Source of the DNA: Escherichia coli
GTDB lineage: Bacteria; Pseudomonadota; Gammaproteobacteria; Enterobacterales; Enterobacteriaceae
Length of the DNA stretch: 64,000 nt
Reading direction: 5' to 3' (one strand)
Assembly: GCF_029227855.1 (NCBI RefSeq)
Contig: NZ_CP074356.1
Shown: piece by piece, positions 57,101 to 63,100 of the stretch
Numbering within the stretch: the stretch's first letter is position 1
How the letters are laid out: the number at the start of each line of letters is the position of its first letter
Program-made: the position numbers

Positions 57101-60100
57101 GAATATCTTCTGCTCACATAAAAATCACACAATAATATTGATAAATCAGATTATCTTACCTTTACAACATTGCGTTAACAGTCAATGACACTTCTTGAAT
57201 AAAAATATTGTCAATCAATGAGTTATTCCTCATTTAAGATTATTCTCATTCACGTAAAAAACATAATTCCTATCATCACAGCCACGCTCATTTTGAATTA
57301 TCTGAATAATAGCGAGCGTTCTTTAGTTAAGCAGATCTTAATTGAAGACGAAATTATTGTGTGTGCAACTTACTTAATACCGGACATCTAAGTTGAAGAA
57401 AAAAATACTTGCCTTCGGGCTTATCTCAGCATTGTTCTGCTCCACGCCAGCGATGGCGGATATGAACCGCACCACGAAAGGTGCATTGCTAGGCGCAGGC
57501 GTTGGTTTACTTACTGGCAATGGTGTTAATGGCGTACTGAAAGGTGCAGCTGTTGGCGCTGGTGTTGGTGCAGTAACAGAAAAAGGCCGCGACGGTAAAA
57601 ATGCGCGTAAAGGTGCAAAAGTGGGTGCCGCCGTTGGTGCTGTCACTGGCGTTCTGACCGGCAATGGCCTCGAAGGGGCGATTAAAGGTGCCGTGATTGG
57701 CGGTACGGGTGGTGCAATTCTGGGTAAAATGAAATAAGGAATGATGATGAAAAAATTTGCTTTACTGGCGGGTCTGTTTGTTTTCGCACCAATGACCTGG
57801 GCGCAGGACTACAATATTAAAAACGGTTTGCCGTCAGAAACCTATATTACTTGCGCAGAAGCCAACGAAATGGCAAAAACTGACAGCGCACAGGTTGCAG
57901 AAATTGTTGCGGTAATGGGTAATGCCAGCGTTGCCAGCCGTGATTTAAAAATTGAGCAATTTCCGGAACTAAGCGCCAAAGTGGTAGAAAAACTGAATCA
58001 GGTTTGCGCTAAAGACCCGCAAATGCTGTTGATCACGGCAATTGATGACACTATGCGTGCTATCGGCAAAAAATAATATTTAATATGTTACCGCGTCGAT
58101 GAATTCGACGCGGTATTTTAGCTAACGGGGATCAGAACTTATATTTCAGGCCCACCATCACTGCGGTGTCATTGTAGCCATTATCACCCAGCTGCACGCC
58201 CACATTACCCCAGACGCTGGCCGCCGGATTCAGATTGCCATTTACGCCAAGTTTAATTTCCCCCAGATTACGCGCCCCGTCTTGTTCAACTTTCACACCG
58301 TTCATTGAGACAGCAAAATCTTTACTGTTATGGATCCAGTTCATTTCAACAAAAGGTTCAAAGTCGTCACCGTGCGGACCGCTGTTTTTCTCCTGAGTAC
58401 GAATAAAGGTACGGAAGCCGAGTCGGGTCTGGATGTTGTTATTTGCGTCATTCTCAATACGTGAGCCATTGGCTTCCGTGTGCGCATTATGATCGACGCC
58501 CATCCAGATAGCCTGTGCCTGTGGCTGGAAGATCCACGTATATTTCGCCGCTTCCAGACCAAAGGATTTATTCAGGGCAAAACCGTAACCCGCTTCCAGC
58601 GAGACGGTTGCACCTTTCGCGCTATAGGATTCATAGGCTAACTCATCCCCTTTCACCGAGTTTTTAAACCAGCTATATTGCGCCCAGGCGTCAATGTATG
58701 CGCCTTTTTTACTGATGTCATCGGCAAACCAGGTGGCATACAGCCCTGCGCTATAGCCTCTGACACTCCCTTTCGAACGATAATCCGACACGCTGGAATG
58801 AGTTGAGTTGTAGTCGCGGGCATAACCAGCCATCACTCCCAAACGCCAACTGTCACTGTCGGTAAAACCACCGGTTAACAGATCGGCCCCTAACTGTGAG
58901 ACGTAGCGATGCGAGGTCGTTCTCAACTGTCCGTTGCTGTCACGCCAGGCATTATGCCCGCCAATTTGACGTAGCCAAAGTCGGCTTGAACGCTCCTGTT
59001 CAGTTACAGGATCGATGTAACGCGTTTCACCTGCACGGTCGTTCAGACGCATAACAAAAAGAGTGTTAGCGGCTGCCAGGTTGGCGACGTAACTTCCAGC
59101 TTCGGGGCGCAGAACGGGGGTAGGCGTTTCTGTTGATTCTGAATTTCCCTCTGAGCTGTTATCCTCCTCATTCACTGACTGATAACTTGTCAAATACCAG
59201 TTTTTGCCTTGTTGTTTTAGTTGATATTCGAAAGCTCCAGCTGCAATCCTTGCATCACCTTGTCTGAAGGCATCTGCTGGAGATTCATCGCCATTCACAG
59301 TTATGAGTTCGATCCCATTTAGCGTGGCCGCGCCGCTTCCTCCAGCATTTTTCACATAGACGGTAGTTGAACCCGAAGTATTGCCCTCAACAATAAGTCT
59401 GTCAGTAGCCGATTTATCATCACCTAATACGGTGCGGGTATTAAGCTGACCATTATTACCGACATAATTACCTTTTACGGTTAACGTTTTTCCCTGGGTA
59501 AATGTTTGACCATCATCATACGAAAGATTGATAATACTGTCTGAATTAGTCAGATGGATAACAACGGAGTCATCTTTCATATTCCAGATTGTGTTTTCTG
59601 AAAGCTTCAGTGTAGTTGTGCCGCTAACGAGTTTAGTCGCTCCATTTAGAGTAGAGTCGGACGAAATTATGTTTAAGCCACCTCCAGTATTATTAACCAG
59701 AATATTATTACCAGGCGTGATAATACTTCGATTAAGGATGCTTACATCCGTTGTAGTTTTGTTAACATCAATACTATCCAAAGCACTTGAAAGTTCGACA
59801 CTTGATAGTGCTATTTTGGCTTGAGAATCGATATTTGATGCATCAATTGATATTCCTTTATCTTGTTCTGATACCGCGGTGACATTGGAAAAAAATAACT
59901 CTCCACCATTGTATATTTTTGCAATGGGGGCTTTAGTGCCTTTTGTTGTAATAGAACTATTTTTTATATCAATGTTACCTTGTCGAATAGCAACTGCATA
60001 ACTTCCATGCTCCCCGGTTTCAAGTGCCACATAATCTAAATTAATATATGCTTTTTCCCCATTAGCATAAGCACCATAGCTATTAGTGCCATTAGTTGTT

Positions 60101-63100
60101 ATGGAACCACCATTCATTTTTAAATCAGCACGGCTAATAACTTCGTAACTGTTAGAATCACTAACTTCATCATCTACAGCATCGACACATGTTCGAGACT
60201 CTCCAGAACTTGAACATGCAAGAACACCTACTGCATTTTCCCCATAGGTAACAATGTTCGTTTTATCTGTGGTTTCAAGACGGGTGTTATTTTCCACAAT
60301 CCCAGAATCATTAACCTGACTTAAAAGTCCCGCTGAATATGCCCCCCTCGTCTCGACTGAATTATCACCATTCATAACGATGGTGCCACCAAATTCACTG
60401 ACTACTGCGCTGGCTGTTATCCCTCCATTAACATCTTGGTTATTTCCTTTGTCAGATACGCTTCCAGAGGTCTTAATACCGCTATCGCTTATATATAATA
60501 CTTTGTTATGACTATCAACAGAAATACCATAAGATCCATCACCACTAGTCATCACACTGGCATTATTTATATATCCAGTTACACCGTCATCCACTTTCAC
60601 AGCATGGCTTTCGTCTTTAGTGGTTAGATACTCTCCATTACTTATCGAATTATTATCTTTGATTTCAATCGGCGATTCTTCATCAGTTATATAGGAAAGT
60701 ATACTATAATCATCCAACAATTGTGTTGCATATGCATTACCCACCGCCAAAGCAATAAGTCCTAAACTAAACCCGGGGAGTTTTTTCAGTTTCATAGATT
60801 AACCATCCATTCATTGGATTAACAAACATTCCTGGTCAAATAACCTATGAGTTCAGATTACCAAAACGGAGGGTAAAGACAAAAACAAAAGCACAAAAAA
60901 TTTAAATAGATAAACAGCGACAATATATAAATGATAAATAAGGCGGCATTATCATTTTTCACCTTATTTTCATGACATTGATCACTTTGGGGTGACGATT
61001 TTGTTTAACAAATAACTCTTCGACATCAAAATTATTAATAGTTGCCATAGAAATTATTTCGATGATATATAAAACCAACTGTGATAACACCAGGGTTGAC
61101 AACTATTTGCGCAATAATTCCTTTCCTTCAATGATCCAGGCGTTCACTGTCAGCACCCCATTCAGCCGCATACTGACAGTGAGAAACTGAAAGATTATTG
61201 CTGATCCCTGTGGCTGACGAGTCTTTCCCTTAATCGATTAATCAGATTGATCGCCAGCCAAACAAGGGCATTAAGCAAATTTATCGTCACAAGCACTTCT
61301 CCCAGCCCGGTACTGGGTTTTGCAATAAGGATGACCAGGATAGTGATCAGCATAAATGCAATGGAAAAGATGATATAGAGAGTGAAATAATCCAGATTAT
61401 TACTATTGTTCATGCTACTAATGGCAATCCTGTCAAAACTTTCAAACAATTATAGCAAACAAAATAATGAACAATAGTAACAAGAGGCAACGAGCTAATT
61501 AGCTGTCTATAATTACACCGCACTATGGCCTTACTGATCGATTTTTACTCAACCACAACCTTCACCTTCGGTTTAGAAAGGATAATTTTGACCAGGTCGA
61601 TGTATGTTACCGGTTTATAGAAATAATAACCCTGCTGAAATGTGATATTATTTTGATTCAGATAGTCAAGTTGTTCTTTCGTTTCGACACCTTCAGCGAC
61701 GATACTGATCGAAAGTTTACGCGCCAGATCCAATACACAATCCAGAATCCGAGTTGATTCTGGGTCTGCGTTTACGCGGCCAACGAAACTGTGATCAATT
61801 TTGATATAATCAATATGCAGGTCATGCAGATAAGAAAGCCCTGAGTAGCCAGTACCGAAATCATCCAGCGCGATGACAAAACCATTTTCATGCAGAATGT
61901 TCAACCGCTGAACCAGACTTTCATCAACATTTAATGGCTCACGCTCGGTAACTTCCAGAACGAGGTTTAAATCGCGACGGGTAAAACTGTCACGGTAATT
62001 TAAGCACTCGTCGACAAATGTCGGCGAAATAATATGCGAGGCGCTAAAATTAATCCCAATATGAAAACCTTCCGGCAGTTTACTCGCGATAGCGTTCATC
62101 TGTCTGGCAACCTGATTCATCAGGCTTTGCGTAAGCGGAACGATTAATCCGGATTTTTCAGCAAGTGGAATAAATGCCGCGGGTGATATATATCCACCGT
62201 GAGGTTGTTTCCAGCGGGCTAACACCTCAACTCCCCGCAATGTCCCTTCCCGACCATTTACCACAGGTTGGTAAAATGGGACGATCTCCCCATTATTTAT
62301 AGCCCGTCGCAGGATCTCTTCAGGCGTTGCGCTTTTATTGAAATACCTATCAAGCAGGAAGGCAGCGGCGCAGGCGATTAACAGAATAAATATCAAAATC
62401 CCAAAGCCTTTATCGATAAGTCTGTAGAAGCTAAAGAGTGGCGGCGGGTTAAAGATAATAGTGAAATGATATTTTGTGGAGTGAACCTTCTCGGTATAGG
62501 GATAGTGTCCATTAAGCGTCATCACATCACCCGTAGGTCCAATAATGTCATCTGCCACGCGTAATACATACCTTACCCCTTTCAAGGGTACATTAAGCGC
62601 CCCGCGAATATGCTGATCACTTATCGTAACCAAAATGCGCGTATCTGCAAATTGGCTCTGATAGAGCAGGATAGGTAATCTATTAACGGTGTCGATTGCC
62701 GGAGCCAGCAGTAAATTACTGTCCGGGAAAACAGGAATACGAGACAGTAGGACCCGATTCCCCGGTAAGGATGTACACCAGACCGTTCCCTGTTTGAGAA
62801 TGATGATTGTGCGCAGGTGAGGTTTCAGAGCTGCTTCAGTGCCAAGCTGATATTGCTCCTCGAGGTCGCATTCCTTCCCGGCAATGTTAACCGCCGTTTG
62901 AGTCGCCTGTGACGCTTCTTCAAGTATATGATTGATATTGTTGGCTGCATATCTTGCTCCCGCCAGGTACTCTGCTTTTGCGGAATACCAGAGCTGGATG
63001 TTCAAAATAGTGACACCGGTTATAAACAAGCATATCGCAATGAAGATGGGTATGAGTGTATTGCGCATTTGCTTGTCCCGGCCAAAGGGTTTAATACATG

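Follow-up and report, generated by a model that had tools for sequence, protein, structure and literature searches.

Has ycgH, an autotransporter gene that is broken in Escherichia coli K-12, been kept in working order elsewhere in the species, and if so, what could its product do for the strains that still encode it? The question is raised by a stretch of 64,000 nucleotides (nt) of E. coli DNA (contig NZ_CP074356.1 of assembly GCF_029227855.1, hereafter the window), in which one uninterrupted open reading frame (ORF) of 887 codons plus stop, beginning with ATG, lies next to ymgD (Table 1). We consider it highly probable (roughly 0.85) that this ORF is an intact allele of ycgH and that it encodes a classical (type Va), chromosomal E. 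coli autotransporter of the AIDA-I/pertactin structural kind.

In the ORF listing of the window this frame is far longer than chance would be expected to produce, and the gene order around it (minCDE, a large autotransporter gene, ymgJ, ymgI, ymgG, ymgD, the ORF itself, ymgF, pdeG, ymgC, ariR, ymgA, ycgZ, bluF, and bluR) is that of the K-12 ycgH neighborhood, with the adjoining and convergent ymgD (57741..58076; Pfam YmgD, E = 5e-49) on one side and ymgF and pdeG on the other. The K-12 gene (formerly ycgH_1/ycgH_2, b1169/b1170) occupies the same locus between ymgD and ymgF, behind a near-identical upstream spacer. The two loci align over their full length (2951 nt) at 96.9% nucleotide identity, the passenger alone at 96.2%, and the K-12 strains retrieved by megablast carry the annotation "ycgH: autotransporter YcgH". 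Given the same neighbors and this level of identity over the full length, the ORF is, as judged by synteny and alignment, the ycgH orthologue. An earlier note, made from the bare sequence, had called it "YcgH-like", which had the relationship right but worded it too weakly, as this is ycgH itself. Its product is exactly WP_275877270.1 (RefSeq name "autotransporter YcgH"), a protein that recurs unchanged in independent samples, on five contigs or more, and the start and stop coordinates of the ORF match those of intact RefSeq ycgH annotations. Contigs that encode near-identical YcgH proteins of 887 amino acids (aa) number in the hundreds, or above 1000, for each protein; three of these proteins (WP_000768550.1, WP_001563811.1, and WP_000768549.1), likewise 887 aa long, differ from the window protein by 6-8 residues, and at Gly106, Ser197, and Thr453 of the latter the four sampled intact alleles (see below) have Asp, Pro, and Ile. 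The gene is thus already named in RefSeq, and its intact copy is an ordinary strain-to-strain difference.

What, then, is wrong with the K-12 copy? In MG1655, ycgH (b4491) is annotated as a pseudogene (1219601-1222248), and the corresponding entry in DH1 bears the note "frameshifted; internal stop". Alignment with the window reveals three lesions in K-12: 15 bp are missing in frame at gene nt 352 (window 60444), codon 512 is changed to a stop, and one nucleotide has been lost at gene nt 2589, a loss that would destroy the final barrel strands together with the C-terminal Phe. The window copy carries none of the three, and its frame is open over the entire gene. The earlier note had stated that the K-12 counterpart is interrupted and had described a single-frame 887-aa autotransporter ORF downstream of ymgD; the nonsense codon and the 1-nt deletion bear out the statement, and the ORF listing, the Pfam matches and the reading of the signal peptide given below confirm the description.

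An open frame of this length might also owe its existence to an error of assembly or polishing. The nearest complete genome, that of JNEC-KY178 (NZ_AP045174.1), differs from the window at only nine sites across all 64 kb, and the single one of these inside ycgH is a base that makes a stop of codon 435 in JNEC-KY178; moreover, a 1-nt homopolymer deletion in another autotransporter gene of the window, ycgV, could itself be an assembly error. However, the GGA at 59493 is shared with K-12, and codon 435 is read through in the four intact sampled alleles, so the JNEC-KY178 stop is derived and the window state ancestral. As the identical protein also recurs in independent samples, we reject an artefact as the source of the ycgH frame and give it next to no chance.

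By its sequence and model, the protein has the architecture of a type Va autotransporter: signal peptide, beta-barrel, a (predicted) alpha-helical linker, a beta-helix with autochaperone, and a terminal aromatic residue. Read directly from the translation, its first 23 residues (MKLKKLPGFSLGLIALAVGNAYA, followed by TQ) combine a basic n-region, a hydrophobic core and an AxA cleavage site, i.e., a Sec signal peptide. The Pfam domains AC_1 (aa 410-526, E = 3e-28), Pertactin (aa 432-536, E = 1e-8) and Autotransporter beta-domain (PF03797, aa 606-865, E = 6e-41) are all matched, in agreement with the passenger and C-terminal barrel first read from the sequence. Among the NCBIfam models only the generic barrel model TIGR01414 is passed (371.9 bits against a cutoff of 16), while those for AIDA-I, MisL, YfaL/EhaC, and ShdA reach the C-terminal half only and stay far under their cutoffs. 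No Pfam or NCBIfam family matches the first ca. 385 residues of the passenger, and no catalytic domain or motif was found in YcgH by either collection.

An AlphaFold2 model, built from a 36-sequence alignment of distant homologues (mean predicted local distance difference test score, pLDDT, 85; predicted template modeling score, pTM, 0.78), agrees with this division. It gives pLDDT values below 50 to aa 1-35, where the signal peptide appears disordered, continues as an unbroken beta-strand solenoid from ca. aa 35 to 536, has low pLDDT at aa 544-546 and 589-598 with a helix at aa 564-578 (pLDDT ca. 95) standing between them, and closes with twelve long strands (aa 605-886); a globular insertion is absent from the model. 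The protein ends in ...GLKYKF, whose terminal aromatic residue is that of the outer-membrane-protein beta-signal. Foldseek searches against the PDB match the barrel to the transport unit of AIDA-I (4MEE; TM-score 0.95, root-mean-square deviation 2.0 Å, 35% identity) and the passenger to pertactin (1DAB), IcsA (5KE1), Ag43 (7KOH), and Hap (3SYJ), and the sequence match to 4MEE extends over aa 434-887 (E = 2e-76, 35% identity). The passenger also contains the pair Cys194-x8-Cys203 ("GVLACSSSGESRTCVD", window ca. 60187..60216), present in both other allele types of the locus and in 9 of the 36 aligned distant homologues, which may form a conserved disulphide loop.

How would such a protein work? 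By analogy with established type Va biology (the secretion mechanism, along with the adhesin grouping of the relatives, is reviewed in PMC9289746), YcgH would be exported by the Sec machinery and its barrel inserted by the barrel assembly machinery (BAM), after which the ca. 530-aa passenger would be threaded out C-terminus first, with the autochaperone folding first and templating the beta-helix, and the latter would be displayed on the cell surface, acting most likely as an adhesin or biofilm factor. Other roles for a surface beta-helix (serum resistance, invasion, IcsA-like actin-based motility, or an unrecognized enzyme) appear improbable: the nearest solved passenger fragments do include IcsA, the N-terminal 385 residues carry no family assignment and the cysteine pair, with its nine homologues, could mark a functional loop, but neither Pfam nor NCBIfam detects a catalytic domain or motif, the modeled beta-helix is continuous, and E. 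coli autotransporters that consist of a beta-helix only are mostly adhesins or biofilm factors (PMC9289746). We thus favor an adhesin or biofilm role. In the alignment with 4MEE the Asp of "SLTDRLVV" is kept as D465, and the Glu of "VNEDGSG" aligns with Ala484. These two presumably correspond to D878 and E897 of AIDA-I, the acidic pair needed for its self-cleavage. As one of them would be an alanine here, the passenger is probably left uncleaved, i.e., covalently joined to the barrel. Between alleles, the barrel has a ratio of nonsynonymous to synonymous substitution rates (dN/dS) of 0.04-0.17 and the gene as a whole one of 0.16-0.31, which is consistent with past purifying selection on ycgH.

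How widespread is the intact gene? In a set of 5426 complete E. coli genomes, megablast with the locus found it in 5110; a search with the passenger alone retrieved 80% or more of it from 2127 genomes, 520 of them with 99% identity or more to the window. When the K-12 nonsense site was typed with centred 61-nt probes, the segment was present in 2238 genomes, in 1494 as the exact K-12 TAA version and in 693 as the exact intact version of the window. Eight evenly spaced members of the window-like class (98.8% identity or more) were sampled, half of them annotated as intact and half as pseudogenes, and the latter four owe their state to three different mutations: G435->TGA in JNEC-KY178; a -1 frameshift within an A6 run at gene nt 831 (window ca. 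59965), common to GN05505 and strain 17a; and, in MS1679, a +1 frameshift within a T7 run at nt 900 (window ca. 59896) together with a stop. We considered phase variation via the A6 and T7 tracts and rejected it, as the tracts are too short; they are taken as ordinary slippage hotspots. Some genomes have insertion sequences (IS) in ycgH (ISSen4, IS903B, and ISKpn26), about 1000 further ones keep only a deletion remnant, and 1787 of the 5426 carry a different passenger (the ECIAI39_1904 family) that is split into two annotated pieces in most cases. The intact YcgH-type gene is therefore a minority, very roughly 5% of complete genomes (a wide estimate, coming from n = 8), yet plentiful in absolute numbers. 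The best explanation appears to be that ycgH is dispensable and decays repeatedly at the population level, and that the strain of the window retains a working copy. In some strains the neighboring c-di-GMP phosphodiesterase gene pdeG has become a pseudogene too, through an internal stop in GN05505 and through truncation in A36, so decay at this locus is not confined to autotransporters.

Is the working copy used? In K-12, genomic systematic evolution of ligands by exponential enrichment (SELEX) assigns to the ymgF-ycgH spacer an RpoD promoter with an H-NS site (PMC3946193), and a sigma-S RNA polymerase (RNAP) peak from chromatin immunoprecipitation sequencing (ChIP-seq) at 1219400-1219949 (PMC4447067) spans the ycgH start at 1219601. 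Based on these H-NS and RpoD sites and the sigma-S peak, YcgH probably shows weak expression in laboratory culture that is linked to the stationary phase. The published ycgH promoter "TTGACA-19-TATAAG" (PMC3946193) finds no match with two or fewer mismatches in the spacer of the window, and its sole nearby match lies in the coding region (60488-60518).

A gene so regulated could be intact and cryptic at once, silenced (H-NS, AT-rich 5' half), contributing nothing and already on the path to decay. The K-12 nonsense mutation in at least 1494 of ca. 2200 carriers, the disabling of four of the eight sampled window-like alleles by at least three distinct lesions, the loss of the gene in the sister genome JNEC-KY178 through one base change, the H-NS site reported for the K-12 spacer (PMC3946193) and a passenger of 37.6% G+C in a window of 49% all speak for such a state. 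We nevertheless find it doubtful, since the low barrel dN/dS indicates past purifying selection, thousands of contigs still encode an intact YcgH of 887 aa, conservation across allele classes reaches ca. 99% in the upstream region and signal peptide, and the K-12 sigma-S RNAP peak over the gene start suggests a promoter in use.

Several further points weigh against our preferred reading. Because the first ca. 385 passenger residues belong to no Pfam or NCBIfam family, the term "adhesin" is taken from the fold class only. The literature that we found on ycgH concerns the K-12 pseudogene, its use as a neutral integration site, and ChIP/SELEX mentions, and no experiment on YcgH was found in it. 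The passenger has a higher dN/dS than the barrel, calculated from few substitutions, and a simple sigma-70 consensus scan returned no coding-strand promoter in the spacer. Most genomes, finally, have lost ycgH, and any function must therefore be conditionally dispensable. Our preferred reading, an intact type Va autotransporter gene whose product most likely serves adhesion or biofilm formation, is to be understood with these points in mind.

The ECIAI39_1904-type allele sits at the same locus as YcgH, its mature passenger having only ca. 40-50% protein and ca. 55% nucleotide identity to that of YcgH. Compared with CH4796, which carries this type, the window shows 1 difference in the 400 bp upstream, 0 in gene nt 1-68, 876 in nt 69-1669 and 4 in nt 1670-2664 (linker helix and barrel). 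In the protein, the divergence begins at residue 24, the first of the mature chain, and ends at residue 556, just before "PTPVLRPEAGSY". Since the divergence is confined to the mature passenger and the flanks are near-identical, the exposed part, as far as these alignments go, behaves as an exchangeable cassette between conserved flanks. The N-terminal passenger has a G+C content of 37.6%, the barrel one of 50.6%. In the Escherichia assembly GCA_004211955.1 the same slot is taken by a third type of passenger (P0136, 880 aa). Such allelic diversity of the passenger is known from other autotransporters, e.g., the variants of Ag43 (PMC10058404); we found no paper on passenger exchange at ycgH and none on ECIAI39_1904. 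In both the YcgH-type and the ECIAI39_1904-type classes, inactivation has come about repeatedly through independent events (point mutations, slips in homopolymers, deletions, and IS insertions), and it separates even genomes that are 9 sites per 64 kb apart. We tentatively postulate, as a possibility rather than an expectation, that the ycgH locus is a site of passenger-cassette exchange, with at least three deeply divergent passengers, where diversifying or frequency-dependent selection (by phage or host immunity) acts on the exposed part, together with a recurrent loss that is itself selected, not neutral decay.

The window also allows ycgH to be set beside two other autotransporter genes. 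Three such loci in different states of integrity had been noticed at the outset and taken as a sign of strain-specific turnover of the adhesin repertoire, and both statements hold up, the second through the survey above and through reciprocal inactivations in a near-identical genome (adhesin function being inferred). The first locus, ycgV (12841..15725), lies in two overlapping frames (12841..13977 and 13953..15725, plus strand), as one nucleotide is missing from a G-run at 13954 relative to JNEC-KY178, where ycgV is intact (961 aa); the deletion might be an assembly error. The second, adjacent to minE (53430..56780, minus strand, 1116 aa from the RefSeq start, with the ORF reaching 56852), is intact and encodes six AIDA repeats, a Pertactin domain, a long Asn-Pro repeat linker ((GGGTTC)n) and a barrel. 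The Prokaryotic Genome Annotation Pipeline (PGAP) labels it "ypjA: YpjA/EhaD" though it stands at the ycgI locus, where K-12 has only a 344-bp pseudogene remnant, ycgI. Together with the intact ycgH this results in reciprocal states, the window having a frameshifted ycgV and an intact ycgH, and JNEC-KY178 an intact ycgV and a ycgH with a nonsense mutation. Of the nine sites that separate the two genomes (1937, 9822, 12828, 13954, 29613, 54405, 57961, 59493, and 63331), four belong to the three autotransporter genes or their immediate upstream sequence: 12828, a (TA)n indel 13 nt upstream of the ycgV ATG; 13954; 54405, where the Asn-Pro repeat of the minE-adjacent gene is 18 bp shorter in the window than in JNEC-KY178; and 59493. 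These genes make up 14% of the window (binomial P for at least four of nine = 0.027), and the clustering is suggestive only, since repeats and homopolymers are prone to mutation and an assembly error may lie behind the 1-nt deletion.

What does this mean for the strain and for the species? Unlike K-12, the strain of the window could in principle make YcgH, an uncharacterized surface beta-helix protein, and a first test of YcgH function could well start from this strain or from an equivalent allele. An intact ycgH is by itself of little consequence. The locus is a small example of the turnover of E. coli surface proteins, with a cassette swap, two-thirds of the carriers sharing one old nonsense mutation and fresh knock-outs in near-identical genomes; such turnover is already well documented for other autotransporters, e.g., Ag43.

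The features of the gene and its surroundings are listed in Table 1. The hairpin separating ymgD from ycgH, which has a T-run only toward ymgD, probably serves both of these convergent genes as a terminator. Elsewhere in the window, and annotated as such in JNEC-KY178, are a gene cluster between treA and ymgE (23427..29895, plus strand) for an iron ABC transporter, a methyltransferase, ModD, and a TonB-dependent receptor, a gene for a leucine-rich-repeat protein (35083..36519) and hlyE (ca. 46950-47863).

Table 1 Features of the ycgH locus in the window (AF2, AlphaFold2; UTR, untranslated region; strand "." denotes a feature without orientation)
Feature	Position in window	Strand	Basis
ycgH coding sequence, intact	58132..60795	-	ORF, synteny and identity to ycgH, exact RefSeq protein
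Signal peptide, aa 1-23 (MKLKKLPGFSLGLIALAVGNAYA)	60727..60795	-	Reading of translation; same in ECIAI39_1904-type allele
N-terminal passenger, aa 24-409, predicted right-handed beta-helix, 37.6% G+C	59569..60726	-	AF2 strands, fold matches
Autochaperone, aa 410-526 (Pfam AC_1, E = 3e-28), overlapping Pertactin 432-536	59218..59568	-	Pfam; IcsA 3ML3, E = 7e-19
Linker, aa 527-605: acidic/Ser-rich spacer 541-557, then predicted in-pore alpha-helix 564-578	58981..59217	-	AF2 model
12-strand beta-barrel translocator, aa 606-887	58135..58980	-	PF03797, AF2 model, 4MEE superposition
Passenger cassette (putative), gene nt 69-1669, aa 24-556	59127..60727	-	Alignment to ECIAI39_1904-type allele
K-12 nonsense site Q512, CAA->TAA; window CAA (Gln512)	59262	-	Alignment
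K-12 1-nt deletion, gene nt 2589, codon 863	58207	-	Alignment
Only in-gene ycgH difference from JNEC-KY178: window Gly435 (GGA), JNEC-KY178 TGA stop	59493	-	Alignment
AT-rich ymgF-ycgH spacer, presumed promoter and 5' UTR	60796..61194	-	Alignment, ca. 99% conserved across allele classes
Perfect 11-bp-stem hairpin (TACCGCGTCGA-TGAAT-TCGACGCGGTA) between convergent ymgD and ycgH	58089..58115	.	Palindromic sequence

Which of the known autotransporters does YcgH resemble? The enzymatic ones (serine protease autotransporters of Enterobacteriaceae, SPATE; subtilase; GDSL lipase) were rejected, as YcgH has no such Pfam or NCBIfam match and no globular domain in the model. The ECIAI39_1904 family was likewise rejected as its assignment, given that the YcgH passenger has ca. 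17-64% aa identity to it per 40-residue block and that only the signal peptide and aa 557-887 match. There is no NCBIfam auto_Ag43 match. With AIDA-I, YcgH shares the AIDA-type autochaperone, the linker and the barrel (aa 434-887, 4MEE), but its auto_AIDA-I score is 283 bits against a cutoff of 1200, and the 19-residue AIDA-I repeats (PF16168/TIGR04415), of which the minE-adjacent autotransporter has six stretches, are not matched in it. With the repeat family absent and the curated cutoffs missed, membership in the AIDA-I family of self-associating autotransporters (SAAT) was rejected. Pertactin P.69 of Bordetella (1DAB) and IcsA (5KE1, 3ML3) are distant in sequence, with 14-24% identity in structural alignments, but they have the same plan as that predicted for YcgH, a right-handed parallel beta-helix with a C-terminal autochaperone cap.

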